From assembly GCA_963751025.1 (NCBI GenBank), contig CAVVTC010000005.1, forward strand, positions 312,304-376,303: a stretch of DNA of 64,000 nt, given 5' to 3'. This document shows, piece by piece, positions 22,827-63,519 of the stretch. Below the pieces are notes generated by a model. That model saw only the letters and a program-made list of their open reading frames with translations, had not been told where the DNA came from and made no database searches. The stretch's first letter is position 1; each line of letters starts with the position of its first letter. Source of the stretch: an uncultured Acidobacteriota bacterium (GTDB lineage: Bacteria > Acidobacteriota > Vicinamibacteria > Vicinamibacterales > UBA2999). Made by a program: the position numbers and the translations under genes.

Positions 22827-22837
22827 GAACTGTCATT

Positions 22838-23701: not shown

Positions 23702-23717
23702 TAATCGTAATTCAGAG

Positions 23718-29942: not shown

Positions 29943-29958
29943 AAAGCGGATGTGTAAA

Positions 29959-38621: not shown

Positions 38622-38632
38622 AGTCGTCTCCG

Positions 38633-39594: not shown

Positions 39595-41298
39595 TTACCG
39601 AAAACACGGCAGGCCGGTCATGCGGTAATGCCCGGCCGCGGCGCGTCCCCGGAGCGTGAACACCTGAACCGGAGGTCCGGCTGGCGCCGGCAGGACGCCC
39701 GCGCGTTCGTACGACGCCATCACGTGATCGTGGATCAGCCGGAACTGCGGAACGAAGTGCGAGCTGTACGAGCGCTCGTCATCGAGCAGCACCACGGGAA
39801 CCGATTCGCGTCGCATCCGCGCGAGCGTGAGCTGCTGATCGCTCTCGAGCGTATAGAAGCCCGGGCGGAACGTCGGCTGGCCACCGGCGAACGAGCGCCC
39901 GGCGATCGCCAGAATCTCCGGCGCGTCGGCGACGACGAGCACACGGTCGGCGGGAGCCGTGCACAGACGCACGTACTCCGCGGCGTTCGGTTCCGGATCG
40001 GCTGGAGCGCCCGCGGGTGAAGACACAGGTGGAGGCAGCGCGCGAAGCTCCGTGGTCACGGCCGCGAGCCGCCGGCCGATCTTCTTGACGCTGTCGCCGA
40101 GTCCGGTCGTGTCGAGCTCGTGCCACACGCTGCCCGTGGTGGCGAGCGCCATCATCGTCGGCACCAGCACCAGCGCTGCGGTCGTCCACACCAGCCCACG
40201 CAGCCATGGCGCGCCATCCTGAAACCGTGACGGCAGCCAGGCCGCGAGGATGGCGAGGGGAGCGCCCAGATCGCCGAATCTGGCGCCGAAGTTGTTCCGC
40301 AGGAAGAAGCGATCGAGGATCAAGGCGAGCACGGCCAGGCTGGCGATCACGGCGCGGGTTTGCCGGGTGTCGAGATTCCTGGCGCGGGGTGCGCCGATGA
40401 GGACGAGCAGCGCCACGATCGGGATGGCGACACTGACGTCGTAGAGCCACGCCACCGCGTTGCCTTCCTCGGACAGAACCGACCAGATGCCGCCCGTCGA
40501 GGGCCCGAAGTGCGGCCAGCGGAACGTCGTGCGGTTGGCCTCCTGGGCGACGAGCGCGCGAGCCGTTTCGAGATAGGAGCCGATGCCGACGTAGTGCTGG
40601 ATCGAGTAGACAGGTAAGGCGAGCAGCAGCACGACCGTGCCCGCGTAGACCGCCAGCCGGTCGAACGCCTCGCGCCAGCGCGGCGTTCCCAGCAGCATCA
40701 GGATCGCGACCGGCGGTGCGAGATAGACCAGAAAGTCGTGGCGAAACAGGAACGCGACCGCGGACCACGCGCCGAGCTGCGCCGCACGCACGCGAGTCGG
40801 CTGCCGCACGTAGCGGAGGAACAGCGCCGCCGCGACGGCAAACACCAGTACTTTCGAATAGCCATACAGCTTGGTGGAGGCGAACAGCGTCGCGATCGTC
40901 GCGATCACCGCGGTCGCCCTGCCCGAGAGCTCGGTGGCGGTGCGAGCCGTGAGCGCGAGCGCGAATGCGAGCAGACCCACGGTGAAGACGGCTTCCGCGA
41001 AGAACGTCTCGCCGATCACGCGCTGCGCGAGCGCCGGCAGCTCGTAGGTCAGCGCCGGCCACGCGCCCATGACGCCGGCATCGGCGAAATCCCTGAGCGG
41101 ACGCTCGCCGTGCGCAACGGCCGACGCGCCCAGGGAGTAGATGAAGTGATCGCCGTCGAAGCCGCCGAGCGCGCCGCCGAGCGCGTTGAAGCGGTACAGG
41201 AAGGCCAACAGGAAAATGGCGATCGGTACGACCAGCGCGTGTCTGGCTGCGCGAGCAATCGCCTGACGGAACCCGGGCCGCCTCAAGGCGGCCCCCAC
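39595..41298 (-). CDS. P-family polytopic membrane protein, paralog P1 (567 aa, intact). Function unknown; proposed to be GT-C-like.
   Basis: Family motifs are YRFNALGG..GGFDGDHF, GERPLRDFAD, KLYGYSKV, AFLFRHDF, LRNNFGARFGD, CTAPADRVLVVADAPEI..RSFAGGQPTFRPGFY, and a terminal TGLPCFR. Confidence 0.7.
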   Translation of the reverse strand: MGAALRRPGFRQAIARAARHALVVPIAIFLLAFLYRFNALGGALGGFDGDHFIYSLGASAVAHGERPLRDFADAGVMGAWPALTYELPALAQRVIGETFFAEAVFTVGLLAFALALTARTATELSGRATAVIATIATLFASTKLYGYSKVLVFAVAAALFLRYVRQPTRVRAAQLGAWSAVAFLFRHDFLVYLAPPVAILMLLGTPRWREAFDRLAVYAGTVVLLLALPVYSIQHYVGIGSYLETARALVAQEANRTTFRWPHFGPSTGGIWSVLSEEGNAVAWLYDVSVAIPIVALLVLIGAPRARNLDTRQTRAVIASLAVLALILDRFFLRNNFGARFGDLGAPLAILAAWLPSRFQDGAPWLRGLVWTTAALVLVPTMMALATTGSVWHELDTTGLGDSVKKIGRRLAAVTTELRALPPPVSSPAGAPADPEPNAAEYVRLCTAPADRVLVVADAPEILAIAGRSFAGGQPTFRPGFYTLESDQQLTLARMRRESVPVVLLDDERSYSSHFVPQFRLIHDHVMASYERAGVLPAPAGPPVQVFTLRGRAAAGHYRMTGLPCFR

Positions 41299-41311
41299 GT
41301 CAGAGTCGTAT

Positions 41312-41812
41312 TCACCACCAATCGCGGCGCGGATTCGGATCGGTACGCGCCACGGCTCGCGCGGCGCTCATGAGATTGTCGATCGATCCCGGACCGCACG
41401 CAGGCCCGGCCGCGGCGGCCATTTGCTGAATGCCAATGAGCGCCGCGGGGATCGCAGCGGCCCGGTCGTCGCCGATCACCGTGATACCGTAAAGATGCCG
41501 TGCCAACTGCGTGCGCTGCGATTCATCGAGCCAGGTGGTTCCACATGCGACGAGCGCTTCGGCGAGCGCGCGGCTCGCCTTCGCGTCGGGCGGGAACGGC
41601 CCGAACGAGCGCAGTCGTTCGTCGATGTCAACGGCAGTGGACGACGGCGATCCCAACCGCGCTGCAAGGTCGATGATCTTCGCCTCCTGTTCCGGCGATG
41701 GCGGCGGCTCAGCCGTGGGCCGCCAGAGGGCAAGCGCGAGCGCCGCGATGACGACCATCGGCAGTGCCTGCAGCCACCCCGCGTACGGGTTGTGATCCGA
41801 CGTTTCGTTCAT
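41312..41812 (-). CDS. Small N-terminally anchored hypothetical protein upstream of P1
   Basis: Intact, 166 aa. The TM is LQALPMVVIAALALALW. The soluble part is Ala/Leu-rich. I do not recognise a family. Confidence 0.45.
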   Translation of the reverse strand: MNETSDHNPYAGWLQALPMVVIAALALALWRPTAEPPPSPEQEAKIIDLAARLGSPSSTAVDIDERLRSFGPFPPDAKASRALAEALVACGTTWLDESQRTQLARHLYGITVIGDDRAAAIPAALIGIQQMAAAAGPACGPGSIDNLMSAARAVARTDPNPRRDWW

Positions 41813-43302
41813 CTCGCGTCGCGGCTCGCTCCCCGACTCGTCTGTGTCGCGTGCATACCCGTTCTGACCATTGTGCTCGTCCGCTGGCTCTTTGGTGTAT
41901 CGGTCTCAGCATTCCGTCCCGTACTCAGCGACGAGGTCTATTACTGGCACGAGGCGCTCACGTTTGCGCATGCCGGCCTTCGGGGCGGTTACTACACACT
42001 CGAAGAAGTCACCAATCCGTCCGGATTCACGCCGTTCGGCCCGCACGGCGCGGGCTTCGTCATGCTTTACGGTCTGTTCGGCAAAGTGTTCGAATGGCAC
42101 CGCCACAGCATCCTCGTGCTGAATCTCGTCGCTATCGGCGCGGCGGCCTGGGTGTGGACGGCCTGCGCGCGGCTGTCGAACGCCAAGCTGTGGATGTCGG
42201 CGCTCCTGCTCGGCACGTTCTGGCAGATGGTCTTCTGGGCCTCGACCGGCATGCAGGAGTCCCTTCACCATGCCGGCGCCATCGTCATGGCGGCGCTGTT
42301 TGCGAACGTGCTCGCGTCGCCGCCGCGAACCTGGATCACGGTGACCGGCGCCGCGACGCTGTGTCTATTGGCTTTCGTCCGGCCGACGTGGATCGTCATC
42401 ATGCCGCTGTGGGCGCTCATCACCAACCGATACGCCAGCCGCACGCGCACCATTGCAGCGGTGGCGGCGTCACTCGCCGCCGCCGCCGTGATGCTGATGA
42501 TCTTCAATCGCACCGTCGCTCCGTACTCCCGCGGCTTCTCGTTCGTCGAGGTCTTCAGCCTGTCTGTCGGCACACGGTCCGTCCTCGAGAACCTGCTGTT
42601 CAATCTGAACCGGACCGTCACCTTCTCGGAATACGACGACCTCGAGATCCTGCACCGCGTTCAGGTACCTGGGGCTTTCTCGTCGCCTCGCTGGCGCTTG
42701 CGGTTGCACTGTGGTGGCGTCGGCTGAACTGGCGCTCGGGGCCCCTCGCGCACCTGGCTGTCGCGACAACGGCGATGTTCACCATCCTCGGGCTGATGCT
42801 GGTGCTGTATTCGCTCACCAACTGGGCCGAGCACCGGGTGCTGTCGGCATTTCTTCTGTTCGGCGCCCTGCTGACGCTCGCCGCCCCGGGACGCGCCCCT
42901 CTCGTGCTGGTCGCGGCGCTGATCGTCTCGAACGTGGCCACCGCCGGTACGTTCGTCCGCGTCTTCGAGGCCAAGCGACAGGAGCAGTTCATCTGGGATC
43001 ATCGCGGCGTGAACGTGTTGCAGGAGACGCTGGAGGCAAACCGGGTGGTCTACCGCAAGGACCAGTCACGCTGGTGCAACACGTTGTTGACCGCACAGGA
43101 GCCACCACACTTGATCGCCGTGCCAGCCGGAATCGGCATCTCGGTCGTCCGCGAATCCGATCAGATGTCGATGCCGCCGCGTTCGCGCTACCTGCTCCTC
43201 GACGAGTCGGCGCTCGCACATTTCCAGCGGCCGGTACGCGTGCAGCCGCTGGCGACACTGCCGTACGGCACGCTCTATCTGAACCTCGAATCGGGCTGCG
43301 AT
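41792..43302 (+). CDS. Polytopic membrane protein with an N-terminal DE motif (GT-C/ArnT-like look), with a frame change near 42660-42700. The start is uncertain and the open frame runs on into the MITE.
   Basis: The first TM is ..VCVACIPVLTIVLVRWLF. Then SDEVYYWHEALTFAHAGL follows. Many hydrophobic segments come next. The soluble tail ..FIWDHRGVNVLQETLEANRVVYRKD..LLLDESALAHF.. has no stop until 43449, inside the repeat. Confidence 0.5.
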
Positions 43303-43449
43303 GAGTGGACCGTATCAACTGGAAGAGTACCGCTCACAACCAGCCTCGACCGCGGTTTCCCGGCCGCGACAACCCGTCCCGGGCGCACGCATGCGCGCTG
43401 GGGTGGGAGCGGAGCGGCCGGTAGTGAATCGGGAAGGACATACCACTAG
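43302..43449. mobile_element. MITE-like element, copy 1 (~148 bp), inverted relative to copy 2
   Basis: Its reverse complement, ctagtggtatgtccttcccgattc..ccggccgctccgctcccaccccagcgcgcatgcgtgcgc..gttgtgagcggtactcttccagttgatacggtccactca, matches 48217-48369 at roughly nine of ten positions by eye, with small indels. The terminal CTAG supplies the stop codon of P3. Confidence 0.85.
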
Positions 43450-45103
43450 TATCCGAAGCACGGGAGCCCATTCGGACCCGACGGCGTCCCAACCAGTCCA
43501 CGGCGAACCAGCACACGAAGCGAGCCTTCGGTGATCGAGACGCTGCCGACCTCGTCGTACCGCAGCGAAGTACTCGGCCAGCCCGAGTCGCGGGTCGTCG
43601 AGCAGTTCGCCGCCCAGAACAATGGGAACCGACTGCGAATCGAGCATGGCGATGGTTTCGCGCGCATAGCGGGGATCGGCGTAGTAGCCGACGACGAAGG
43701 TCACGCGCCCGCCGGCGAACAATCGATCCGAAAACGCCGGCACGTCGGGGTAATACCCGATCGCAATCACTCGATCGGTCGGCCGCGTACATCGATGCAG
43801 GTAGTCGGCGGCCTGTGCCCGATCGTTCCCCTGGCTCTGCCGGAGCGAATGCGGCATCTCAGCCAGATCTCGAGACGCCTGCTGGACACGGCGCACGACG
43901 TCGAAGGGCTCGAGCAGTCGCGCGGTCCGCAACTCTCCGCTCACGCTCCCCAGCTGCCAGATGCAGGCAACGGTCACCGCCAGGATCGCAACCGCGGGCG
44001 CGCCGGACGCCAGGACGCGTGGCCAGGGCCGGTGACCTGCCGTCGCCATCGACAACACGTACGCACCGAGCACTGCGACCAGTGGAGCCATGTCCCCGAA
44101 CCGCGCTCCGAGGTTGCCGCGAAGCAGGAAGTGCCAGGCCACCGCGCTCATCAGGCTCAAGGCGACGAGCGCGGCCGCGTGCGTGTCTTCTTCCGCGCCG
44201 CCACGCATGCGTCTCCGCAGCGTGATGACTGTGACCACAATGGGCACGCTCAGGAAGAGGTAGTAGATCCACGCCTCGCTGTTGTCTTCGTTGTCGAGCG
44301 TCGCGGACGGTGAACCCTCGAGCGCGACACGAGGCCAGCCGATCCGCGTGCGCTCGGTACTCGTTCGCGCTCATCTCGCGCGCGTTGCGCACGTACTCGG
44401 TCAGGCCGCGATAGTGCTGAATCCACCAGAACGACGGAGCCAGCAGGACCAATGTGATCACGCCGTACGCGGCGACTCGTCCGATCCGATCCCGCCACAC
44501 TGCGTTGCCTGACAGCGCGATCAACGCGAGAAACCCCACCGCGCAGTAGACCGCGTAGTCGTGCCTGAACAGAAACGCCACGGCCGTCCACGCGCTCATC
44601 AGCGCCACGCGCCGCCAGGTCGGCAATCCGCGGCAGCTGACAATGAGCAGCGCCGCCACCGCAGTGGTCAATACTTTCGGATAGCCATAGAGCTTGGGCG
44701 ACATCAGCGCGGACAGGAGCGCCATCGCCAGCGCCCACGGCCACCGCGCCACGACGCTGCCAGCCAGGAACGCCACCGCCGTGCCAAGCGCCATGCCTCC
44801 AACGGTGAGCCAGGCTTCCGAGCGCAGGTTGTCGCCGAAGTAGCGCTGTGCGGCCGCCGAGAACTCGTAGGTCAGCGACGGCCAGGCTCCGTGCATCGCA
44901 TCGTGGAAGTCGCGGAGCGGCTGCTCGCCCGCCTGGACCTGCTTGGCGAGCGCGAAGTAGAGGAAATGATCGTTATCGAATCCGCCGAACGCGCCGCCGA
45001 GCGTGTTGAACCGGTACAGAAACACCCAGCCGAACAGCAGGATCGCGACGACGCCGACGACGATCCGGCGCGAGAGCGGCTCAGAGGCGCGCTGATCGAG
45101 CAT
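43446..45103 (-). CDS. P-family polytopic membrane protein, paralog P3, with frame changes near 44330 and 43560
   Basis: Motifs are YRFNTLGGAFGGFDNDHF, GEQPLRDFHD, KLYGYPKV, AFLFRHDY, LRGNLGARFGD, CTRPTDRVIAIGYYPDV..RLFAGGRVTFVVGYY, and a terminal NGLPCFGY. Confidence 0.7.
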
Positions 45104-46029
45104 CGATCGAGACGGTCGGACCGGCCGCAGCCTCGATCACATATAGCGGCCGGCGCCGCGACTGGTCGAGTGATCGCCACACATACTCGCCAACCATGGC
45201 GATGGCGGACAGGACGACGCCGCAGCGCACCCGCGATCGCCCCGAGGAGAACGACGACCGCCGCCTGCAGGCTTTCGAACCACACCAGGCCGACGATCAC
45301 GGCGGCCAGACCGATCACCATCAACGCCGCGCCGGCGAGCCAGCAAGCCTTGATCGGGCGCGTCGGAGAACGCGGTGATCGAGTCGATGACCAGCTTGAT
45401 CTTCCTCGCGATGGTCCACCCCGAGCGGCCGGCGGCGCGAGGCAGCTTGTCGTACTCGATGTAGTCCTGGCGGAACCCGAGCCACGTAATCAGCGCAAAC
45501 ACGCTCACGTGCTGCTCGTCGCAGCGCCGGAACGCGTCAATCACCACGCGGTCCACGAGGAAGAAGTCGGCGCCGCGGGCCGGGATCTCCTTCATGCCGA
45601 CGATGTGTCGCATCACCCAGTAATAGAGCGCCGCAAACCCAGCGTGCGTCTGATCGCCCGGCCGTTCGCGCCGCGTCGCCCAGACGACCTGGGCGCCGGC
45701 GCGCCACTTCTGGAGCAGGGCGCCGAGCGTCTCCGGCGGATCCTGCAGATCCGACGCCATCATGACGGCCGCATCGCCGCGCACGTGATGCAGGCCGCAG
45801 GTAATGGCCACATGCGATCCGCGGTTCCGGGCGAGCCGGACGCCGCGCACGCGCGAGTCCACGACCGCCAGGCGCTGGATCACGGCGAAGGTGTCATCAC
45901 TCGAGTGGTCATCGACAATCAGCCACTCCCAGTCCTCCCCCAGCTGCGCCATCGTCTGCGTGAGGCGCGCGTGCAGGGCTTCGAGGTTGGTGGACTCGTT
46001 GAATGCCGGAGTGAGAATCGAGAAATCAT
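45081..46029 (-). CDS. ArnC/polyprenyl-phosphate-sugar-synthase-like family 2 glycosyltransferase with two C-terminal TM helices, with about 3 frame changes. One is in a T-run right after the ATG.
   Basis: ATG 46029 overlaps the upstream stop (ATGA). Motifs are SILTPAFNEST, WLIVDDHSSDDT, ARNRGSHVAI and MASDLQDPPE. The C-terminal TMs are AALMVIGLAAVIVGLVW and VLSAIAMVGEYVWR. Confidence 0.8.
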
Positions 46030-47189
46030 CGCGATACGGCCTGCTTCAGCGACGACGCGACCCGCTGCTGTTCCTCGTCGGTCATCTGGTGATAGAGCGG
46101 CAGTACGATCACCGTGTCTTGTGCCTGCTCGCCGCGGACCAGTGGTCCGGCCGAGCGCCATGAACCGGCCGGGTATGCCGGCTCGCGGTGGGCGTTCATC
46201 ACGCCGCGCCGCGTGGACACGCCCTCGTCCAGCATGCGCTGCATCACGCGACGCTGATCGAGCGGCGGCTCGAGACGAACGGTGTAGCTTTGCCAGTTCG
46301 TCCGCGCCCACGCGGGCTCGACCGCTGGGATCACACCGGGTGTGCCGCGCAACAGCTCTCCATATCCAGCCGCGAGCGCGCGGCGCCGCTCGACGATGGT
46401 CGAGAGGCGTGCGAGCTGTTCACGGCCGATCGCCGCCTGGATATCGGTCATCCGGTAGTTGAATGCCGGAACCGCGTATTCCTCGAACACGACCTGCGAC
46501 GAGGCGTGCCTGACGGTATCGGGGACCGTCATGCCGTGCTGGCGCAGAAGGCGGAACGTCGCATCCAGCTTCGGGCTGCGCGTGGTCAGCATGCCGCCGT
46601 CGCCGGTGGACAGCAGCTTGCGCGGATGGAACGAGAAGCACGCGATGTCCGCATGCGGGCGGCCGACTCGTTCCCATTGCCCTTCCCACAACAGCTCGCT
46701 GCCGATGGCGCAGGCCGCGTCTTCGATCACCGGCACACCGCGCCGCCGGGCAACCGCCAGGATCGGGGCCAGCTCGCACGGCATGCCGAGCTGGTGCACG
46801 ACGAGAATCGCCTTCGTGCGATCGGACATCGCCGGTTCGACGAGCGATGGATCGATGTTGAAGGTGTCGGAGGTGACGTCCACGAACACCGGCGTCGCAC
46901 TGCAGCAGCGGACGGCGTTCGCGGTGGCGATGAACGAATGACTGACCGTGATCACTTCGTCGCCGGGCCCGACGCCGACCGCCAGCAGGGCCAGATGCAG
47001 CGCGGTCGTGCAGCTCGAGACCGCGCAGGCGTGCGGCGCGCCGAGCGCGGCGGCGAACTCGCGCTCGAATGCGGCGACTTCCGGACCCTGCGTCACCCAT
47101 CCCGACAGGATCGCGCGGCGAGCGGCTTCGGCGTCGCGCTCGTCGAGCCAGGGTCGAGCCACAGGAATGAGCGCGGTCGTTCTGGTCAC
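46026..47189 (-). CDS. DegT/DnrJ/EryC1/StrS-family sugar aminotransferase (ArnB-like)
   Basis: Intact, 387 aa, with a GTG start overlapping the upstream stop. Motifs are ARPWLDERDAEAARRAILSGWVTQGPEV, SHSFIATANAV and FSFHPRKLL (PLP Lys). Confidence 0.9.
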   Translation of the reverse strand: MTRTTALIPVARPWLDERDAEAARRAILSGWVTQGPEVAAFEREFAAALGAPHACAVSSCTTALHLALLAVGVGPGDEVITVSHSFIATANAVRCCSATPVFVDVTSDTFNIDPSLVEPAMSDRTKAILVVHQLGMPCELAPILAVARRRGVPVIEDAACAIGSELLWEGQWERVGRPHADIACFSFHPRKLLSTGDGGMLTTRSPKLDATFRLLRQHGMTVPDTVRHASSQVVFEEYAVPAFNYRMTDIQAAIGREQLARLSTIVERRRALAAGYGELLRGTPGVIPAVEPAWARTNWQSYTVRLEPPLDQRRVMQRMLDEGVSTRRGVMNAHREPAYPAGSWRSAGPLVRGEQAQDTVIVLPLYHQMTDEEQQRVASSLKQAVSR

Positions 47190-48216
47190 ACGGTGTTGGA
47201 GGCGGGAATCCAGTTGCGGACGATCTCCTGCTCGAGGAGCTCCTCCGGCGTCTTGTGCTGATCGCGATACCAGTGCAGCAGCCGCTGCAAGCCTTCGGAC
47301 AGGGAGACCTTCGGCGCGAAGCCGAGGAGCGTACGCGCCCTGGTGACGTCGGCGATCAGCCGGTAGACGTCGCCGGGCCGCGGCTCATCGTGCTCGACGA
47401 CCGCGTCCGGCCTGCCGGTTTCAACCGCCACGAGTCGAGCGAGATCGTTGAATCGTCAGATCGACGCCGGTGCCGATGTTGATCGTCTCGCCCACCGCAT
47501 CCGGATGCTCACCGGCGAGCAGTATGCCGGCCGCGGTGTCGCTCACATAGGTGAAGTCACGGGACTGCGAGCCGTCGCCGAAGACCACCATCGGGCGCCC
47601 GGCCAGACAGCGGAGGAGGAACTTGGGAATCACTTCCCCGCTGTCGCCCTCGTGGTGCGATCGCGGACCGTAGGTGTTGAACGGACGCACGACGACGGTG
47701 GGATAGCCATAGGTGCGGAAATACGCACGGGCGTACGCACTCGCCGGCGAGCTTCGAACCACCGTAGACGGTGCAGGGAAAGGCCGGGTAATCCTCGCCG
47801 ATGCGTTCCCCCCGGATCGGCGTGGACTGCACGCCGCCGTACACCTCCGAGCTCGAGACGCAGACGAACCGCGGCACGTCGGCCTGCCGCGCGGCCGCGA
47901 GCAGCTGCAGCGTGGCAGTCGCGTTCACCTCGTGGTTTTCGTGAGGCGAGTGAACGGAATGGCGCACGCCGAGGCAGGCGAGGTGATACACGGCCCGCGT
48001 CTCGTGCAGATGCGGCGCGATCGCCCCCACGTCCCTGATATCCGTCACGAGCAGCGTCACGTGCCGCGACAGTACGTCGGCGACGTTCTCGCGCTTCCCG
48101 TTGACCAGATTGTCGACGATGACCACGCGCTCCCCGCGCGCGGCGAGCTGCCGTACCAGCTCGGAGCCGATGAACCCGGCGCCGCCCGTCACCACCACCG
48201 TCGATCGATCGGCCAT
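47186..48216 (-). CDS. NAD-dependent sugar epimerase/dehydratase, with 2 frame changes (about 47760 and 47430)
   Basis: Motifs are VVVTGGAGFIGSELV, VSSSEVYG, YGGSKLAGE, VVVRPFNTYGP and RDFTYVSD. The ATG at 48216 directly abuts MITE copy 2. Confidence 0.8.
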
Positions 48217-48369
48217 CTAGTGGTATGTCCTTCCCGATTCGTAACCGGCCGCTCCGCTCCCACCCCAGCGCGCATGCGTGCGCGCCGGGGACCCCGGGTT
48301 GTCGCGGCCGGGACATCGCGGTCGAGGCTTGTTGTGAGCGGTACTCTTCCAGTTGATACAGTCCACTAG
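48217..48369. mobile_element. MITE-like element, copy 2 (~153 bp) with CTAGTGG terminal inverted repeats. It fills the whole intergenic spacer.
   Basis: It starts ctagtggtatgtcc and ends gatacagtccactag. It contains an internal palindrome gcgcgcatgcgtgcgcgc. The left end touches ATG 48216. The right-end CTAG contains the stop of the upstream methyltransferase (complement of 48366-48368). Confidence 0.85.
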
Positions 48370-49136: not shown

Positions 49137-49172
49137 GCGTACTCCTCGAAGGGTTCGAACGGCTCCGTCATT

Positions 49173-49600: not shown

Positions 49601-49601
49601 A

Positions 49602-50697: not shown

Positions 50698-50712
50698 AAG
50701 AAAATCCCATCG

Positions 50713-50830
50713 CAGAGGACGCAGGGGAGCAGAGGTACGCAGAGGCTTGCGACGGGTGGACCCGCGCGTAGCGCGGGCATGGATCGAGCCCGCGCCTCCG
50801 CGATCTCCGCGATTGGTTTTCTCCGTGACA
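50713..50830. repeat. Degenerate third copy of the periodic-arm palindromic element
   Basis: The left arm is gcagaggacgcaggggagcagaggtacgcagaggc. The centre is cccgcgcgtagcgcggg. The right arm is gcgcctccgcgatctccgcgattggttttctccgtgac. It has the same 8-bp CTCCGCG periodicity as copies A and B. Confidence 0.55.
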
Positions 50831-50839
50831 TCTGTCCGC

Positions 50840-54305: not shown

Positions 54306-55968
54306 CACACTGCGCCGGCCGCGGTCGGCAGCGGCACGAAACACGGCCAACCCGTCGGAACGTCTATCGCTATGCGCGGGCGGGCCCGCTCGACGAGGAT
54401 GCGAACGCCCTTCAATCCGTCCACCGGGATGTCGGTCAGCACGTCGTACGCAGCGGTCAGGTGCGCCAGGATGTGCGGGAAGCTCCGGGCGAACGCATCC
54501 TGATCGTCGAGCGGCAGCACGACGAAGGGAACGGACTCGCGCTGTCATTCGTTCCAGGGTCAGCCGCTGATCGGCGTCGGAGTGATAGAAGCCTTCCGTG
54601 AACCCGATGTGCCCTCCCGCGAACCCGCGACGGGCGAGGACGAACACGTCGGCATACGGGCCGGAGACGAGCAGGCGATCCGTCGTGGCGGTACAGCGAT
54701 CCAGGTAGCGGAAGAACGGCAGCAGCCCGGCGGAGACGCGGCTGGGCAGCTTACGCGCGTCCATTTCGGGCCGCGTGAGCGCGTCGACAACGGCCGCGGT
54801 GTGCTGCTGCAGATGTTCGAGGTCGTCCTCGAACACACCGACCTCGTCCAGCTTGTCGTGCACGTCGCCGACACGCCAGATGGCGACTGTGGTCACCGCG
54901 AGCAGGACGATCGCCGCGAGACGAACCGGAATCACGATCGGGAGACGGCCTTTCATCGTCCACGCGAGGCCGAGCAGCCACGCGCCGAGCAGGCATGCCG
55001 GTACCGTGGCGTCAGCGAGACGCGTCTCGAGCGGGTTGCGAAGAAAGCTGGCGTCGAGGGCCAGGCCGATGAGTGCGATGGCACCGACGGCAACAGACTC
55101 GCCCGCCCATCCCTCACGTCGCGTGATTCGACGCCACACAGCGAGGAGCAGGCAGACACACGCCAGAGTCCAGAACAGGTAGTACAGCCACGCATGCACG
55201 TTCTCCCTGCGTCAAGCCAGCGGAGAGCTGCAGGTATGGAAGGTCGCGCAGGATCGAGATGTCGGCTTCCCGGCGCGACACGGCGATTCCCGTCTCGAAG
55301 TACGGAACCAGTCCCTGGTAGTACTGCACCCATGCGGCCCAGGGCGCCAGCACGACGGCGACAACGGCGGCAAAGATCGCCATCCGTCGCGCAGCCTCGG
55401 CGAGACCCGACGCGCTGAGCACGATCGCGACCGCACATGCCGCGCCGATGAAGAGACCGTGATCGTGGCGCATGAGGAACGCCACCGCCGTCAGGACCGC
55501 CGCGGTGATGACCCGCGCGCGTGAGGCATGCGCGGCGACGGCAACGATCGCGCAGCCGGCGAGCCCGTAGAACAGCATCTTCGGATAGCTGTAGCTGCGG
55601 GGCGAGGCGAGAATCTCGAGCAGGGTGACGCCGACGCCGACGATCGTCGAACGCGCCAGCCACGACGCGGCAACGGCAGTCGCCGCCGCGCCGATGCCAA
55701 CGCCCGTCGCCACCACGAGGAGCTCGGAGCCGGCGACGTCGCCGAACATCCATCGCGACAGGGCGGAGGGCACGTACATCAGCGGCGCACCGACATCGAC
55801 GAAGTCTCGAATCGGCCAGTCGCCGAGGAGCATCTGACGCGCCCGCGCGACATGAAAGTAGTGATCGTTGGGAAAGCCGTTGTAGGTGAGGAACTGCCAG
55901 AGGACGGCGAGCAGAAACATCGCGAGCGCCGCCGCCCAGATCCGGACGCTCGACTGGACTACTTCCAC
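54305..55968 (-). CDS. P-family polytopic membrane protein, paralog P4, with frame changes near 55150-55200 and 54530
   Basis: Motifs are WQFLTYNGFPNDHY, GDWPIRDFVD, RSYSYPKM, AFLMRHDH, LRNPLETRLAD, CTATTDRLLVSGPYADV..RGFAGGHIGFTEGFYHSDADQRLTLERM and PTGWPCFVPLP. The stop overlaps the P5 start (TGATG). Confidence 0.7.
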
Positions 55969-56402
55969 GGACGCGTCACGCCGCTACACTCGAGCACCGC
56001 CGACTCGGGCTTGTATCGATCGAGGACCTCGCCCATGTCCTCGTCCTCTTCGAGCTGGGCGAGGCATCGCAACTGCTGCCACACCGCCGGCTCCGGCCGC
56101 GGTGCGGACCAGAGGATGACTTCAGCGACCTCCGGCCGCCCGGAGGCGATTGCCGCCTCGAGCGGCGTCAGCTCGGCTCGATCGTTGAACAGGAGATCCG
56201 CGCGTACCTCGCGGCGTTGATAGGGGTCCTCGCCTCGGCGAATCAACCGCACGACCGTCGCCGGATCGCGCAGGGCCGCGGCCTCTGACAGATTGACCGG
56301 CTCGACGCGCCAGAGCGGATGGGTACCAACGACCGCGCGAAGCAACATGCCCGCGGTGAGGACGCCGAGATACGCAGCGGGCAGCGCGGCCGCCGCGATC
56401 AT
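55959..56402 (-). CDS. Small TM-anchored ankyrin-like protein, copy 2
   Basis: ATG 56402 lies within the double stop TGATGA of Q2. The sequence is MIAAAALPAAYLGVLTAGMLL, then ..EAAALRDPATVVRLIRRGEDP....LTPLEAAIASGRPEVAEVIL. Confidence 0.5.
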   Translation of the reverse strand: MIAAAALPAAYLGVLTAGMLLRAVVGTHPLWRVEPVNLSEAAALRDPATVVRLIRRGEDPYQRREVRADLLFNDRAELTPLEAAIASGRPEVAEVILWSAPRPEPAVWQQLRCLAQLEEDEDMGEVLDRYKPESAVLECSGVTRPWK

Positions 56403-57839
56403 CAGTCGCCGTACCACTGGCTCCTCCACTCGGGGACCATCTGCGGATTGGGCACATCGGTGTCGAGCGCGGTCGTCTCTCAGCCCCTCGACGAGCGCCC
56501 GCGGCGCCGCGTCCGAGGGCCATCGGCCTTCCCGCTGCCACTTGATCGGCAACTCCGCCCAGTCGTTGCGCGTTCTGAACGCGTGCTCGTTCATCACGTG
56601 ATGCACGCCCGAGCTGCGCATCGCCCACGCCGATCCGAGCGCCAGCATGGCGATGGACACGACCGCGGCGCGCATGAATCCGCCGCCCTGTCCGTACTCG
56701 AGCACCGCGCGTACAGAGGCAAACGCCGCAATCGCGTAGAACACGCCGGCCACGGCGATGATGTCGTCCTTCGCGTACGAGAAAGACAGCGCGGCGTTGG
56801 CCACCAGCACCACGACAGCGACGATCGCCAGCCGGCCGCTCCGGCCGAGCGTTGCCCGCTTTCTCCACGAGGCTCTCCACCAGGCGAAGGCTGTCCACGC
56901 CATCACGACGGTCATCGCCAGCGACGACAGAACCGTGAGATAGGCATGCGGGTGAACGTCGCCGCCGCGCCACGCGCGGGTCGCGACGAAGAGGCCATCG
57001 CGCGGCTCCGAGAACAGCACGGACAGTATCGAGGCGACGACGTTGTAGGCGTAGAACACGAACGCCCGATCGCCGAACCGCTGCTGGAGCTCCGACGGCT
57101 CCAGGCGTTCGAGAAAGTATCCCGAGGTCCGCTCGGTCAGGGACGGCAGGCCGGTGTCGAGATACCAGAATCGCAGCACGAAGTACCCGGCGAGGAGGGC
57201 GGTCACCAGCACGAGCCCGCGAGCCGAGACGCCGCGCAGCCCGGCCATCCACGCGGTCGCGATCACGACCCAGATCAGCACGCCTGACTCGAGCGTCAGT
57301 GCCGCGAAGACGAAGGTGATCGCAGCCAGCAGGTCGATCAGCCAGCCCCTCCAACCGGCTCGGGGCACGCCGCCATTGGAGAGCGTGAGATTCAACGCGA
57401 TCAGGACGAGGACCGCGATCTCGAGGAAGTGGTTGATCGGGAACGCCTCGCGCAGGAATCCCAGGAAGGTGTGCAGGCCGGTCAGCACCGTCAGCGCCAC
57501 CGCGGCGGCGGCCGCATCGAGCGGCGACTCGATCGGCAGCGCGCGCACGAACAGCCAGATCAGCGCGACGATGAGCAGCGCGTGGAAGCCGCGATAGACG
57601 AGGCGATAGTGCCCCTGGGACAGATCGAAAAGGGCCTTGATCTGGGCGATGCGCAGCGGGCGGAGATAGGACGTCGTGCCGACCGCGTTCCCGAAGGAGG
57701 TGGCGACCGATGGCGAGGCCTGCGCGTCGAGGAGCTCGGTCAGCGCGTCGGAGGGCTGCACCGGCATGCGCCAGAGATCGAACGCGATCGCTGAGGCGAG
57801 CACTCCAGCCAGCACCAGGACGGCGGCGCGGCTGCTCAC
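56402..57839 (-). CDS. Q-family polytopic membrane protein, paralog Q2, with a frame change near 56440
   Basis: Motifs are YLRPLRIAQIKALFDLSQGHY, REAFPINHFL, TLESGVLIWV, PSLTERTSGYF, LEPSEL and FYAYNVVASILSVLFSEPRDG. After the shift the tail reads LDTDVPNPQMVPEWRSQWYGD. Confidence 0.6.
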
Positions 57840-57861
57840 CGGCTCACCGTTGTGTCCGGCG

Positions 57862-58539
57862 TCAGCCGGACCGCCCTTTCACCTTCTCGAGCACGAGCAC
57901 GCGGCCCTTCTTGCCCCAGTCCATCCGCTCCTCGAGATCCGGCCGCGAGCGGCAGCCCTCGAGCACGAACATCAGCCGCAGCATGTCCTTGTTGAGCAGC
58001 GTGATGTGCGAGGGGTCCAGATCGTCGCTCGTGTTGAAGTCGAGCAGCGTCGGCGGGTTCGGGTGGAACCGCGTCGTGACGTAGATGAACTTCGAGGTCA
58101 GGCGCACCATGTTGGCGACCGCCTTCTTCACCTCGAGCACCGTCAGGTGCTCCAGCACCTCGCGGCAGATGACGAGGTCGTACGAGCCGTCCTTCTTGAT
58201 CGAGGCGTCGGTCGCATCGCCGATCGCAATGCGGTCCCTGACCTCCGGCGTCGCCAGCTTCAGGCTCATCTCGTTGTAGTCGATGCCGTCGGCTTCGACG
58301 CCAATCTCCTGCAGCAGGTGCATCAGCGCGCCGGGTCCGCAGCCGAGGTCGATCACACGCGTCGGCTGGAAGACGTCTTTGATGAGCTGCGGATTCTTCG
58401 CCTCGATGCGGCGGCGCGTCTCCAGCGAGTAGTTGTTGTCGCCGGCGCGCCATTCGCCCAGCCAGTAGTTCTCGTCGTAGTGCTGTTGCGCCGTCGGCTT
58501 CTGTGCGAAGACGGCGGCTTCGAACTCGGTGATGGTCAT
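57862..58539 (-). CDS. Class I SAM-dependent methyltransferase
   Basis: Intact, 225 aa. Motif I is VIDLGCGPGALM, with later YDLVICREVLEHL. Confidence 0.8.
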   Translation of the reverse strand: MTITEFEAAVFAQKPTAQQHYDENYWLGEWRAGDNNYSLETRRRIEAKNPQLIKDVFQPTRVIDLGCGPGALMHLLQEIGVEADGIDYNEMSLKLATPEVRDRIAIGDATDASIKKDGSYDLVICREVLEHLTVLEVKKAVANMVRLTSKFIYVTTRFHPNPPTLLDFNTSDDLDPSHITLLNKDMLRLMFVLEGCRSRPDLEERMDWGKKGRVLVLEKVKGRSG

Positions 58540-58989
58540 TGCGTGGTTCTGCTGCTCCTGCGGCGAACTGTTGAAGAAGGCGGCTCGACGAATCCAGCAC
58601 GGTGTCGAGATAGACGATCTCGATGCCGTGCTCGCGGCAGATGACGGCCTGCTCGGGCGGCAGGCCGCGCGCGCGCCAGTCGCTTCCCTTCACGTAGTAG
58701 CGCGGGCGCAGCTGCCGCAGGACGGTCTCGGTGTCGATCTCGTAGATGTGCACGTAGTCGATGTAGCGGATCGCGTCGATGACCGTGGCGCGCTGCGTTT
58801 CGGTCAGCAGCGGCCGATGCTTGGTGCGGACGTAGCGGTCGGACGCGACGTTGCACAACACCGGCACGCCCAGCTCGCGCGCCGCCTTGAAGTACTCGAT
58901 GTGGCCGTGGTGCAGCGGGTCGAAGGCGCCGTCCACCATCGCCACCTGGCTCGCGGTAGTCCACCAGCTGCGTCGAACGTCAGAATCAC
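58536..58989 (-). CDS. Cytidylyl/adenylyl-transferase-like nucleotidyltransferase (TagD/RfaE-domain-II type), with at least 2 frame changes
   Basis: GTG 58989 overlaps the upstream stop (GTGA). Motifs are VDGAFDPLHHGHIEYFKAARELG (HxGH) and YVKGSDW. The stop is inferred from the ATGA overlap with the next gene. Confidence 0.7.
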
Positions 58990-60131
58990 GACTTGACCAG
59001 CAGCCCCTTCTGCTTGAGCTCGTCGAGCGCGCGATCGAAGAAGTCGGTGGCGACGTCAGGCGTGGTCTTCGCCCACTCGACCAGCTCCGAGAATCCCTGA
59101 TCGAGCGTCACCTTCGGCTGGAACCCAAGCGTCGTCTTCGCGCGCGTGATGTCGGCGGTGTTGTGCCGGATGTCGAACTTCCGGCCGGCCTGGGTCACCT
59201 ACGGCTCGATCGACTTGCCCAGGATGCGGTTGAGCGTGTTCGCGATCTCGAGGATCGTCACCGTCTCCCCCGAGCCGACGTTGACCGGCAGGAAGTCGGC
59301 GCCCGGCGTCTCGATCATCAGCACCAGGCAGTCCACGACGTCGTGAATCGACACGAAGTCGCGAAGCTGCCCGCCGTCCTCGAACACCACCGGCTGGCTT
59401 GATCGTTCAGCAGGCGACTCAGCCAGATGGCGGCAACGCCCGCGTACGGGTTGCTCAGGCTCTGCCGCGGGCCGTAGACGTTGAAGAAGCGCGGCGCGAC
59501 CGACGGGATGCCGTAGGTCTTGCCGATGAGCAGCACCATCTCTTCCTGGTGCAGCTTGGTCATCGAGTAGATGTTGTCGCGGTAGAGCGGCTTGTCCTCC
59601 GGCGTCGGGACCGACTGCGACGTGCTCGCGGCACATCGGGCAGCGCTGCTCCCAGTCGCGCGCGGCGAGCTGCTCTTCCGGATCGAATCGTCGGCGCCAC
59701 CGCGCCGTGCGTCGGCGCAGCGATAGGCGCCTTCGCCGTAGACGCCGATCGACGAGGCGACGAGCACCTTCTCGACGTGGTGCTTGGCGTTGACGAGGAT
59801 GTCGAGCAGCAGCGCCGTGCCGCGCGTGTTGACGTCCACGTAGCGATCGACCTGATACATGCTCTGGCCGACGCTCACCGCCGCGCCGAAGTGCACGACG
59901 GCATCGGCCGCGAGCACCAGCGGCTCGAACACCGCGCGGTCGCGCACGTCGCCGCGCACGTAGCGTCGCCTTCGGGTTGGCGTACGACGGCCACGTGCCG
60001 GAGCGATGGACCTGCGGCTCGAGGTTGTCGAGCACGGTGACGCTGGTAGCTCGCGCGCGACGAGCGCGTCGACGAGATGCGAGCCGATGTAGCCGGCGCC
60101 GCCGGTGACGAGGATCGTGACGAATGCTCAT
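58986..60131 (-). CDS. NAD-dependent sugar epimerase/dehydratase with a Cys-rich insert, with at least 4 frame changes
   Basis: Motifs are ILVTGGAGYIGSHLV, VTVLDNLEPQV, SSIGVYGEG, YSMTKLHQE, FFNVYGPRQ and RDFVSIHDV. The insert reads ..YRCA...RDWEQRCPMC.. in alternative frames. Confidence 0.75.
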
Positions 60132-61177
60132 GCGGTGTGTGACTCTCTCGTGGATCGGATCGTGGACGGTGCGTCGGCCGCACGTCGAGCAGCGCGTGCG
60201 GCGCCGATGCGATCGAGCGCCGAGCGCGCCATCACCAGGTGCCGCTGCGAGAAGCCGTCGGGATCGGCAAAGTACGCCGTCGAGCGGACGCCGAGGAACG
60301 GCGCCAGATACGAGAAGCCGCCGTAGGTGCCGACGAACGCCGACGCGCCGGCCGACGACCGCCGTCTGCAGCGCGAGATTCTCACGCGGATGCATGTCGG
60401 CGGCAGCGTCTGCACGCCGATGGCGTCCGCACACGTCACCGTCGTGATCGTCGAGCCGAAGCCCGGTGGCCAGCGAGACGACCGGGCCGCGGTCGCGCAG
60501 CGACCTGAAGCGTGCGTCGCGCGAAGGCGCGATTCTCGCGCGTGTCGGGAAAGCAGTCGTTGAAGTAGAACTTCACCGCGGTGTACGGCGATGCGGGCCG
60601 CCTGAAGGCGGCGCCCACGTTCGGCCCCGGCGTCGTCCGGCGGCGAGCGGCGCGTACGTCGTGAACCGATGCACCCACTCTTCCTGCACGTGTCCCCACC
60701 AGAACGGATTGAACAGTCGGTACATCGTCGACGGGTGCAGCATCGAGCGGCTGTGGACGTCCGTGGTGAGCTCGCGCAGCAGCTGACGCTCGAACGCCAG
60801 CACCTGCGTCTGCTTCTGCTCGCCGTTGGCCGCGACGCGCTCGTCGTGCCGCTGCCGGAACTCCTCGGGCGTCAGATAGTCGAAGATGTCGCGATAGCCG
60901 GCGGCAAACGGCCGATACCAGGCGGCCGTGCCGCCGCGCGAGACGATCAGCAGGCGTTCCGGCGCGACGCGAAACGTTCGGCGAACCAGCGCAGGAACGG
61001 CACCCAATAGAGCAGCTCGAAACCGACCTCGCCGAGCCACGGGCCGACGACGATCGTGTCGCGGCCCGCGGCCAGCCGGCCGAGATCCGACGCCAGGCGG
61101 CTCGCATGGACCTTCGCCAGCTGCGCGCTGATGCCGTGACGGATCGATCGCGGCACGAGCTGCCGCACGATGTTCAT
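60128..61177 (-). CDS. R-family hypothetical protein, paralog R2, with at least 3 frame changes
   Basis: Motifs are VVGPWLGEVGFELLYWVPFLRWF, LLIVSRGG, NGEQKQ, YTAVKFYFNDCFPD and FVGTYGGFSYLAPFLGV. The stop overlaps the next ATG (ATGA). Confidence 0.55.
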
Positions 61178-61208
61178 GGCTTTACGTTAGACGCAGAGAC
61201 GAGGCCCG

Positions 61209-61913
61209 TCACTGAGCGCCCCGATCCTGGAGCCGGCGCTCGGCTTCGGCCCAGTCGTCTGGAGTGTCAATCGACAGCGAGTCTGCGGCGTGGACGAGGA
61301 GCGGCTGGCAGCGCTCGCCGTAGATGGTGCCGAAGCGATCGAGCGTCGCGCGCCAGCACGCGTAGACGGTGCCGTCTCGCGAGTAGGCCGGCCGCGCATC
61401 CTGGCGACGGGTCAGCGCGCGCTCCCTCGGGCAGGAACGGCCGCAGCACGCCCGTCCTCGATGCGCATCACGTAGTCGGGCGACAGATGCCTGGGCAGCT
61501 CGACCACGGTCACGACCGAGTCGGCCTTCGTCTCGCGCAGCATCGTCACGGCGTCGCGCACGTGCGAGGGACGGCGAAGCGGCGAGGTCGGCTGCAGCAG
61601 CACGATCACGTCAGGCGTCCAGCCGCTCGCGGACAGCGCGTCGATCGCGTGCCGCACGACCGGCAGCATCGGCGTGTCGTCGGCGGCCAGCGACGCGGGC
61701 CGCATGAACGGGACCTCGAGACCGGACCGTCGGCCCGCGTCGGCGATCTCGTCGGAGTCGGTCGAGAGCACGATCCGATCGATCACGCCCGACTCACGCG
61801 CGGCGCGCGCGGTGTACTCGATGAGCGGCCGGCCGGCCAGCGGCCGAACGTTCTTTCCGGGCACGCCCTTCGATCCGCCCCGGGCCGGCACGATGGCGAG
61901 GACGTCGACTCAC
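61209..61913 (-). CDS. Acylneuraminate-type cytidylyltransferase, copy 2, with at least 3 frame changes
   Basis: GTG 61913 overlaps the P6 stop (GTGA). Motifs are LAIVPARGGSKGVPGKN, VLSTDSDEIA and LLQPTSPLR. Later come VLRPFLPEGA.. and ..SLSIDTPDDWAEAERRL, ending at TGA (complement of 61209-61211). Confidence 0.75.
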
Positions 61914-63519
61914 CGGTAACACAACCAGCCGGTCGCAGGGTCGTGCCCGACCGCGAGCGCCTGGCTGAACGCGAGCGTGATCCGCGGCCATCCTCCGTGT
62001 TCAGCGCAACCCGGTCGGGGAAGTGTTGCTCGAGATACACCCCGAGTTCGCCAAACCTGGCCACGACGCCCTCGGCCGACGGCGACAGGAGGACCGCGAC
62101 CGGTACGCGCTGCGCTGCGAGCCGGCGCATCACTTCGCGATGGTCCTCATCCCGTGTCAGCAGTCCCGGCTGAAACCACGCCTGCCCGCCAGCGAACGGG
62201 CGGCGGGCCCACACGAACACCTCGGGAGCGTACGCCGGGAGCAGGATGTGATCGCGGCGGTCGAGACACCGATCGGCGTACTCGAGAAATGGCATGAGCG
62301 CCGAGGCCACGGCAGACGGCATCTGGGCCTGCGGAAAGCGCTCGTGCAATTCCGCCGTGCGGGCTCGCGCGTGATCCCACAGTCGGGCCAGGCCGCCAAG
62401 CATCTCGGCCTTCTCGAGTTGTTCCTTCGTGGAGGAGATGACCGTCGCGCTCGCCAGCGTGACCGTGACGAGGGCCGTGGCGGCGACCCATGCCAGGCCA
62501 CGGCCCCTGAGGGAGTGCATTCGCATGGCTCCCGCGAGCAGCCATCCGAGGAGCAGGGACACCGGCACGATCGCGTCCGGCAGTCGAGCCGAGATGGTGT
62601 CCCGAATCAGCCCGGCATTCGCCAGTACCGCCACCACGATCAAGGGCACCACCATCGAGCGTTCGAGTGGATCGGGATGACGGGGCCAGCGCATCCACAC
62701 GACGATGGCCGCGCACACCGGCAGCAGATGAAAGAAGAAGAACAGCCAGGGGACCGCGTTCGAGTCCAGCAGACTGCCATCGAACGCGAACTCCGGTATC
62801 GTGCGGCCTCGCGAGCTCTCGACCGCCTGCAGCTCGATGCCGCGCATGAGGTGCCGCCACAGCCCGTCGTGCGTCGCCACGAACATGATGTACGGCGAGA
62901 GCATCAGGAGCACTGCGCCGCTGAACGTCATCGCGGTGCGCAGGACCGTCTTGCCATCCACCGTCATCCCCACCAGGACGACGGTCAGCAGACTGCCGAC
63001 GCCAAGGTAGAACCCGTGGTCGTGCCGCAGCCCGAAGGCCAGGACGACGACGGCGGCCAGCTGCGCCAGGCGCGACAGCGACGGGCGCTCCACGTATCGC
63101 CACATCACCAGGAAGCCCGCTGCATACGCCAGGATCTTGGGATAGCTGTAGGTCCGCGGGAAAATCACGACCTCGAGCGCCACGACGAGCACCGCGATCC
63201 ACCACGAGCCGGTGAGCCGCCGCGCCGCGTAGAGCGTGAGCACTGCGGCCAGACCGAACATCAGCGCGACGAGCACGGCTTCGCCGAAGAGCGGGGCATC
63301 GGGAAGGGTCCAGAACGGAATCGCCGACAGCAGCTCCATCAGCGGCAGGCCGAACTCCACGTAGTCGCGCGACGGCAACTCCCCCATGGAGATCTGCTGA
63401 CCCGCCGCCACGTGCATGTAGTGATCGTTCGAGAATCCTGCGACTGACAGGTACCGGAAGACCCCGACAAGGAGTCCCAATGCCACCGCGATCGCCACTC
63501 GGATCGTCCGGTGCTTCAT
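61910..63519 (-). CDS. P-family polytopic membrane protein, paralog P6, with a frame change near 61985
   Basis: Motifs are FRYLSVAGFSNDHY, GELPSRDYVE, RTYSYPKI, AFGLRHDH, IRDTISARLPD and CLDRRDHILLPAYAPEV..RPFAGGQAWFQPG. After the shift the end reads ITLAFSQALAVGHDPATGWLCYR. Confidence 0.7.

Follow-up and report, generated by a model that had tools for sequence, protein, structure and literature searches.

The segment analysed here, referred to as the window, is a 64,000 nt stretch of contig CAVVTC010000005.1 (GenBank assembly GCA_963751025.1; positions 312,304 to 376,303 of the forward strand) from an uncultured soil Acidobacteriota bacterium assigned to UBA2999 in the order Vicinamibacterales. 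A glycan-biosynthesis region at 21–64 kb of the window includes five genes, designated P1 to P5, that encode diverged polytopic membrane proteins of a single family, P. A first-pass annotation made from the sequence had reported five co-linear paralogues, and tblastn searches with two intact copies as queries identified exactly five loci, all on the minus strand and at the coordinates reported there (E values 1e-28 to 1e-79). The same five were recovered when all six-frame stop-to-stop open reading frames (ORFs) were searched with a family hidden Markov model (HMM), and no sixth copy was found in the window.

P1 (coordinates 39595 to 41298 including the stop codon; coding region 39598 to 41298) is intact and encodes a protein of 567 amino acids (aa). 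P2 (43446 to 45103) is located directly downstream of a gene for a GT2 family glycosyltransferase and includes apparent 1 nt frameshifts near 44356 and at 43561–43565; joining the segments 44357–45103, 43561–44355 and 43449–43565 yields a product of ~553 aa. P3 (52686 to 54305; ~541 aa) is without its stop codon, the sequence being locally divergent at that point, and 1 nt is shared between the P4 stop and the P3 start. P4 (54305 to 55968; ~554 aa from 55201–55968, 54546–55202 and 54308–54544) has two frameshifts and P5 (61910 to 63519; ~536 aa from 61987–63519 and 61913–61984) has one. The corrected proteins are 535–567 aa in length and share 25.6–38.3% identity in pairwise comparisons.

The G+C content of the window is 66–70%, and frame plots revealed that many genes switch frame across its whole length. 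A public metagenome contig of 268 kb (ENA ERZ25039469, contig_30896; here called L080) is ~97% identical to window positions 46174–64000, and comparison of the two identified 53 small indels in ~17 kb, mostly single extra bases in the window that are located outside homopolymers. Throughout the window, the density is about one small indel per 300–500 bp. L080 has an uninterrupted P5 (536 aa), in which the one base missing from the window at ~61983 is present, and its P3 is also intact (541 aa, ending GGT-stop). The frameshifts in P4 correspond to single extra bases in the window at ~55210 and 54544, and L080 reads through both of these sites and carries a shift of its own at a different one. 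As L080 is intact at the positions shifted in the window and shifted elsewhere, assembly errors account for the indels in P3, P4 and P5, and this comparison together with the window-wide indels rules out the possibility that these three are pseudogenes. P4 orthologues are also intact in more distant metagenome-assembled genomes (MAGs), namely L033 (72% identical) and L005 (63% identical). Given these orthologues and the read-through in L080, the P genes were treated as intact. P2 lies outside the part covered by L080, and its shifts were assumed to be sequence errors of the same kind. The window sequence is error-rich, and gene calls made from it need frame correction.

An alignment of the five corrected proteins confirmed a shared series of motifs in an identical order, namely G(F/L)x(N/G)DH(F/Y) (motif 1), G(E/D)xPxRD(F/Y)x(D/E) (motif 2), (P/T)(K/R)xY(G/S)Y(P/S)K (motif 3), AF(L/G)(F/M/L)RHD(H/F/Y) (motif 4) and (L/I)R(N/D/G)xxxxR(F/L)xD (motif 5), with CxxxxD(R/H), RxFA(G/A)G and a terminal G(W/L)(P/L)C(F/Y) in the C-terminal part. 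The series had been recognised in the first-pass annotation, the wording of which needed amendment in places, as P1 has TK where the others have P(K/R) and the terminus of P2 is NGLPCF, with NG in place of TG. The C(F/Y) is near-terminal, as had been described, but is followed by 1–11 residues rather than by 2–10.

Conservation was examined in 332 near-full-length family members. In the first part of the protein, D40 of the NDH motif (98%) and D60 (99%) and D63 (98% as D/E) of the RDFxD motif are near-invariant, as are R172 (100%) and D174 (95%; D/E in 100%) in the RHDH motif. Further conserved residues are R304 (98%), R310 (97%) and D313 (97%) in the FLRDxxxxRLxD motif, and R438 (98%). Two cysteines, C416 (100%) and C533 (98%), the latter within the terminal GWPCF, are also conserved, and these family-invariant residues are the only cysteines in P1.

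None of the five P proteins had a meaningful match in Pfam-A or NCBIfam (hmmscan, E ≤ 1), and the library matches that were seen are at chance level (Chitin_synth_2, 0.086; LA_3751/2 putative glycosyltransferase, 0.019; IcmF, 0.17). Likewise, a 40-sequence family profile gave 0 matches at E ≤ 10 when compared with all PDB chain sequences. A word-indexed search retrieved 196 homologues, and a Pfam domain was found in none but one, a GT2 fusion protein. These homologues are mostly named 'hypothetical protein', and a few were named 'ArnT-like glycosyltransferase' by the Joint Genome Institute (JGI). A resemblance to glycosyltransferases with the C-type (GT-C) fold has thus already been caught by automated JGI annotation, though it was never described, and searches of the literature on GT-C enzymes and Acidobacteria or Vicinamibacter found nothing on the P family. 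The family is large, as clustering at 50% identity gave 3,195 representatives with E ≤ 1e-3, 995 of them with E ≤ 1e-30.

An AlphaFold2 model of the P3 sequence, built on the family alignment, had a predicted local distance difference test (pLDDT) score of 91.8 and a predicted TM-score (pTM) of 0.91. The model contains 11 hydrophobic helices of transmembrane (TM) length, in agreement with hydropathy and with the 8–13 expected of GT-C_A enzymes. The first two TM helices (residues 13–33 and 84–110) are joined by an outside loop with two juxtamembrane helices (39–52 and 67–80), a further GT-C_A feature, and an amphipathic helix (226–243) is present in the loop joining the seventh and eighth TM helices. 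From residue ~400 to the C-terminus, an alpha/beta domain of ~140 aa holds both invariant cysteines.

When the P3 model was compared with the PDB using Foldseek, 18 matches with E ≤ 1e-3 were found, and all were to GT-C enzymes (query-normalised TM-score 0.40–0.51, probability 1.00). AftA was the best (E value 2.4e-6), and the others include ArnT (TM-score 0.50), PglB, yeast and human STT3 and DPY19. Weaker matches with a probability near 1.0 were also to GT-C enzymes (AftB, EmbB, ALG3 and PMT), so that the top 26 matches and every later one with a probability >0.9 belong to this group, and transporters and receptors appeared only at probabilities <0.3. The GT-C fold proposed in the first-pass annotation is therefore solidly assigned in the predicted model, with TM-scores of ~0.5 indicating a shared fold rather than a close relationship. 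Judged by Pfam, NCBIfam, PDB profiles and the literature, the evidence supports P as a family that is undescribed at the sequence level, although its fold is known.

The membrane topology was examined using the model helices as TM segments and loop charges averaged over the 40-sequence alignment. The predicted inside loops contain 10.8 K+R and 2.9 D+E residues, whereas the predicted outside loops contain 8.7 and 12.1, respectively. In addition, a GT2 domain is found immediately N-terminal of TM1 in two metagenomic relatives, P0109 and P0129 (82% identical to each other), and a Ser/Thr kinase domain occupies the same position in a third, P0151. Both types of domain work in the cytoplasm. As the positive-inside rule and these natural fusions agree, the N-terminus is placed in the cytoplasm, and all of the strongly conserved polar motifs, including PRxYGYPK, as well as the two-cysteine domain are thus outside the cytoplasm. 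The kinase fusion in P0151 may also hint at phosphorylation-linked control, or may be a gene-calling artefact.

With this topology, D40 is found 7 residues past TM1, and D60 and D63 are in the same first outside loop, giving the acidic loop expected of a GT-C_A enzyme. An extracytoplasmic acidic/His loop directly after the first TM helix had been predicted in the first-pass annotation, and neither of the findings that it had named as contrary to its proposal, a match to a characterised family or a cytoplasmic location of this loop, was obtained. The obvious reading of the two invariant cysteines is that they presumably form a C416–C533 disulfide by which the C-terminus is anchored to the outside domain, and this predicted bond is itself consistent with a periplasmic location of the domain. 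In one subfamily, an insertion of ~100 aa is present at profile position 245–250, in the outside loop past the amphipathic helix, which is likely to be an acceptor-facing region.

The distribution of the family was examined in a scan of one genome per species, which identified 139 relatives; the counts given from here on refer to the best 79 loci. Nearly all are in MAGs from Vicinamibacterales or other Acidobacteriota, with stray matches in Phycisphaerae, Acidimicrobiia, Dehalococcoidia and one MAG labelled Bifidobacteriaceae. Two or three P copies are present within 20 kb in about 20 of the 79 loci, and several MAGs carry 5–7 copies overall. The suggestion that five diverged copies in 24 kb would be unusual was thus not borne out, as this number is at the high end, yet typical of the lineage. 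L001 to L005, L033 and L080 show synteny with the cluster, and syntenic orthologues of P2, P3 and P4 in other MAGs share 52–72% identity, compared with 28–38% among these paralogues in the window; the P2 orthologue in L002, for example, is syntenic and 67% identical over 321 aa. As orthologues are closer than paralogues, the duplications are old and each copy has been maintained.

In the direction of transcription (minus strand), the cluster begins with a methyltransferase gene and P5, followed by genes for a PseF-like CMP-nonulosonate synthetase, an S-family protein, a short-chain dehydrogenase/reductase (SDR) epimerase/dehydratase, a cytidylyltransferase-like protein, a methyltransferase, an M-family protein and a small single-TM protein, and then by P4 and P3. 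An M-family, a small single-TM and an S-family gene follow P3, together with a further methyltransferase gene. Next are genes for a LegB-like dehydratase, a PseC/LegC/ArnB-like aminotransferase and the GT2, and then P2. After P2 are a W-family gene on the opposite strand, a gene for a small single-TM protein, P1, a gene for a ~340 aa protein, and neuB. The gene between P1 and neuB (38500–39527, minus strand) is strongly coding, with G+C at third codon positions near 1.0, and its product has no Pfam match, nor does the 496 aa product of its L080 counterpart.

The GT2 gene (45137 to 46045, minus strand; Pfam PF00535) is directly upstream of P2 and is frameshifted at its C-terminus. Its intact orthologue in L002 aligned over the full length with PgfS (9.6e-48) and ArnC (1.4e-35), although below the equivalog cut-offs. 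It has two C-terminal TM helices and a GEYxWR...RRPLY tail, as is typical of GtrB/ArnC. The GT2 is thus of the GtrB/ArnC/PgfS type, to judge from its sequence a polyprenyl-phosphate sugar synthase, in line with the ArnC-like neighbour noted in the first-pass annotation. The GT2 domain fused to the P relative P0109 is also of the DPM1/GtrB type and is 30% identical to the window GT2. On the other side of the GT2 gene are the genes for the DegT/PseC/LegC/ArnB-type sugar aminotransferase (46026 to 47384, minus strand) and the LegB-like SDR sugar 4,6-dehydratase/epimerase (47189 to 48216, minus strand, frameshifted), and these two enzymes could make a 4-amino-4,6-dideoxy sugar for the GT2.

Genes for a nonulosonic acid pathway of the legionaminic/pseudaminic type are spread over window positions 37384–38500, 46026–48216 and 61415–61909 (L080, 821–3066; L033, 509–1666), and encode a NeuC-type hydrolysing 2-epimerase, a NeuB-type synthase, a PseF-like cytidylyltransferase, a LegB-like dehydratase and a PseC/LegC-like aminotransferase. 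At least four S-adenosylmethionine-dependent methyltransferases are also encoded in the cluster. At lower coordinates (20994–29966), the window includes genes for a sortase, a GDP-mannose 4,6-dehydratase, an RmlD-like reductase, a GT2 and a WecA/MraY-type GT4, the last of which probably initiates the glycan on which the GT-C proteins act.

The dehydratase–aminotransferase–GT2–P2 module is flanked by two copies of a 151 bp repeat (43304–43449 and 48217–48367) that are in opposite orientation and 91% identical. The repeat has terminal inverted repeats, CTAGTGG...CCACTAG, and a strong predicted fold (-62.6 kcal/mol). A third copy is located at an unrelated intergenic site in L080 (8676–8824), and the matching site in the window (58989–59001) is without it. 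Given this unrelated third site, it is less likely that the repeats are the ends of an invertible or mobile cassette, and more probable that they are a dispersed small mobile element resembling a miniature inverted-repeat transposable element.

Two genes for M-family polytopic membrane proteins (~470–480 aa) are found in the window on the minus strand. One (51277 to 52678) is frameshifted and directly downstream of P3, and the other (56340 to 57839) is upstream of P4 with a small single-TM gene between; the two copies in L080 are at 10001–11437 and 15155–16591. The family has no match in Pfam or NCBIfam, and D31 and E35, just past TM1, are invariant. When an AlphaFold2 model of an M protein (pLDDT 87, pTM 0.90) was compared with the PDB, the five best fold matches were to AftA, AglB and Pmt4 (probability 0.99–1.0, E value 0.015–0.04), and M is probably a second unnamed, GT-C-like family. 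P and M do not form one family, as the probability of their relationship in a profile-profile comparison (hhalign) was 2%. M was present in 32 of the 79 loci as the closest gene partner of P, with 22 of the 44 M genes immediately adjacent to a P gene and in the same orientation, and is sometimes fused to a GT2 domain.

Behind each M gene is a gene for a small protein of 145–152 aa (~55962–56400 and ~50790–51277, minus strand; L080, 11422–11880 and 16588–17025) with one N-terminal TM helix, a soluble domain and no family match. In the window, the one behind the upstream M gene is fused to the M ORF, probably due to a sequence error. A third type of polytopic protein, W, is encoded on the plus strand at ~41830 to 43400 (approximate, as the gene is frameshifted), with a 549 aa relative encoded in L001 (13744–15390, minus strand). 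W has no Pfam or NCBIfam match, and carries SDEVYYWH directly past its first TM helix, a sequence reminiscent of the DE motif of PMT/ArnT-type enzymes. Finally, two paralogous soluble proteins of the S family (~350–400 aa) are encoded at 49605–51149 and 60436–61107 (minus strand; L080, 17282–18487 and 6342–7388). They share the sequence GPWLxEVGxExLYWxPFLRWF, have no Pfam or NCBIfam match and were found in 13–18 of the 79 loci, and may be cytoplasmic glycosyltransferases, perhaps for nonulosonic acid.

We consider it probable that the five P genes encode an undescribed family of membrane glycosyltransferases with a GT-C fold (GT-C_A-like) that decorate an envelope glycan. In the mechanism proposed, the steps of which are inferred from those of ArnT, AftA, PglB, PMT and Gtr enzymes, the cytoplasmic GtrB/ArnC-type GT2 would load a sugar onto polyprenyl phosphate and the lipid-linked sugar would be flipped across the membrane. 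Each P paralogue would then bind it at the membrane–periplasm interface, where conserved Arg residues would hold the phosphate, perhaps with a metal held by the His and Asp of RHDH. With the aspartate of the first outside loop as the base that activates the acceptor hydroxyl, the sugar would be transferred to a particular position of the envelope glycan. The P proteins would thus probably decorate the cell-surface glycan from outside the cytoplasmic membrane, and this acceptor would probably come from the WecA-type undecaprenyl-linked pathway encoded at lower coordinates. The C-terminal domain, with its presumed C416–C533 staple, and the variable outside loop may select the acceptor, and the five paralogues together with the adjacent M (perhaps also W) proteins may each add a different residue or linkage, in a manner similar to the several Aft/Emb enzymes of mycobacterial arabinan synthesis or to the serotype-specific Gtr enzymes. 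A polyprenyl-phosphate sugar as the donor is suggested indirectly by the adjacent GT2 and the natural GT2–P fusions.

Several points weigh against this interpretation. A strong match to a GtrB-type GT2 on the same strand within 10 kb was found in only 11 of the 79 loci, and the tightest partner of P is the unnamed M family rather than the GT2. In the window, a single GtrB-type GT2 is present for five P genes, and the cluster has no recognised flippase, whether of the GtrA, SMR, MATE or Wzx type. The dehydratase and aminotransferase encoded beside the GT2 could equally serve the Leg/Pse-type nonulosonic acid pathway. TM-scores of ~0.5 in the predicted model speak for a fold in common and not for a common function, and D40 can be regarded only as a putative counterpart of the catalytic Asp of ArnT or PglB. 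A protein acceptor, or an undecaprenyl-diphosphate-linked oligosaccharide donor, is also conceivable.

If proteins were the acceptors, the P proteins would be O-glycosyltransferases of the PMT or Pgf kind, or PglB-like oligosaccharyltransferases, that transfer lipid-linked sugars onto secreted or envelope proteins. PglB, STT3, DPY19 and PMT are indeed among the significant fold matches, and a sortase gene is present at lower coordinates in the window. The Pgf protein-glycosylation operon of Streptococcus mutans (PgfS, PgfM1, PgfE, PgfM2) encodes a GtrB-like GT2, two polytopic proteins and an epimerase. This set resembles the GT2, P, M and SDR genes found here, with two polytopic partners in each, and PgfS is the best NCBIfam match of the adjacent GT2, although the match is below the cut-off (163 versus 500 bits) and the P host is Gram-negative. 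However, the WWD(YG) motif of the GT66 enzymes PglB, STT3 and AglB is absent from all five P proteins, and no STT3 (PF02516) or PMT match in Pfam and no MIR domain was found. Most genes in the cluster are of the polysaccharide type (a WecA-like initiator, GT2s, and genes for deoxy, amino and nonulosonic sugars), and 5–7 paralogues per genome are better explained by linkage-specific decoration of a polymer, making protein glycosylation an unlikely role. It is less probable still that the P proteins use undecaprenyl-diphosphate oligosaccharides as Wzy- or WaaL-like polymerases or ligases. No match to Wzy_C (PF04932) was found, no WaaL, Wzy or RodA-type structure was among the 50 best fold matches, and five polymerases or ligases in one cluster would be unexpected. 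Adjacency and fusion to a GtrB/DPM1-type GT2 also point to single sugars linked to a monophosphate, notwithstanding the lack of a recognised Wzy, WaaL or Wzx in the window, the WecA-type initiator encoded at lower coordinates, and the presence among the fold matches of oligosaccharyltransferases, which use diphosphate-linked donors.

The run of SDR, DegT-type aminotransferase, ArnC-like GT2 and P2 mimics ArnA (C-terminal domain), ArnB, ArnC and ArnT, and could suggest an ArnT-like role for the P proteins, in which lipid A or the lipopolysaccharide core would receive a cationic amino sugar. ArnT (GT83; PDB 5F15/5EZM) is a top fold match and is similar in size (~540 aa), the aminotransferase and ArnC-like GT2 encoded next to P2 resemble the Arn module, and JGI applied the ArnT-like name to a few family members. 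Against this, the P proteins, with 11 predicted TM helices and five paralogues, have no match at E ≤ 1 to the PMT_2/ArnT HMMs of GT39 and GT83 (PF02366, PF13231) and no match to a PDB sequence, and genes for the ArnA formyltransferase, ArnD deformylase and ArnE/F were not seen. For the SDR, the best matches are to LegB/RmlB-type 4,6-dehydratases, and for the aminotransferase to PseC, and an Arn-like function would account for one copy (P2) at most, so that this explanation has a slightly lower probability than a polymerase or ligase role. Least probable of all, and very improbable, is that the P proteins are not enzymes but transporters, flippases or scaffolds that share the GT-C helix packing. 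TM-scores of only ~0.5 and the lack of another recognised flippase in the cluster would allow it, but all significant fold matches are to GT-C enzymes, transporters having scored far lower, and near-invariant Asp, Arg and His residues are found in the outside loops where GT-C active sites lie.

A decorating GT-C glycosyltransferase, the role preferred here for the P proteins, has counterparts in known systems. Like P, the AftA, Emb and AftB enzymes of Mycobacteriales (PDB 8IF8, 7BVF, 9DLH), which include the best structural match, have a polytopic membrane domain with a C-terminal extracytoplasmic domain, and in both cases diverged GT-C paralogues in one genome are thought to share a polyprenyl-monophosphate donor and act on one envelope polymer. 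However, the likeness is at the fold level, as no Pfam, NCBIfam or PDB sequence match to AftA/Emb (GT85, GT53) was found and the motifs of P (NDH, RDFxD, RHDH and the terminal GWPCF) differ. The C-terminal domain of P is also small, with two invariant cysteines and no family match, and the host is a Gram-negative acidobacterium in which no genes of the decaprenylphosphoryl-arabinose (DPA) pathway were seen. The three-component periplasmic glycosylation systems, GtrA/GtrB/Gtr and the GT136 system of Citrobacter, share with P the logic of a polyprenyl-phosphate sugar synthase paired with a GT-C enzyme, the latter acting outside the cytoplasm on a glycan that is already complete. Here, no flippase gene was recognised, many GT-C genes accompany one synthase, and the P proteins are unrelated to Gtr enzymes in sequence, as far as HMM libraries show. 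The GT136 enzyme, a GT-C protein without sequence similarity to existing families, was the basis for a new CAZy family (PMC11127046), so that an orphan GT-C enzyme can be given a family of its own after its activity has been demonstrated.

If the P proteins are active GT-C enzymes, they would be the founding members of a new glycosyltransferase family and would point to an unusually GT-C-rich route to surface polysaccharides outside the cytoplasm. A broader proposal, put forward only tentatively, is that P, M and W comprise at least two, possibly three, undescribed GT-C-like families, and that these form an assembly line for extracytoplasmic glycans specific to the Vicinamibacterales lineage. 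If so, alternating P/M/W arrays with their small single-TM partners and the S family would use polyprenyl-phosphate sugars to build an envelope polymer, or to decorate it heavily, outside the cytoplasm, as a Gram-negative counterpart of mycobacterial arabinan assembly, and P would qualify as a new CAZy family whose acceptor domain is stapled by a disulfide.

As the fold and the general mechanism are known, what is gained is coverage and biology, not a new principle. In soil, few bacteria are as abundant or as little cultured as the Vicinamibacterales (Acidobacteriota subdivision 6). With its many clusters, its lack of a name in Pfam or NCBIfam and its expansion to 5–7 copies per genome, the P family represents a large annotation blind spot in this order, with potential relevance to soil aggregation, desiccation tolerance, and recognition by phages or predators.

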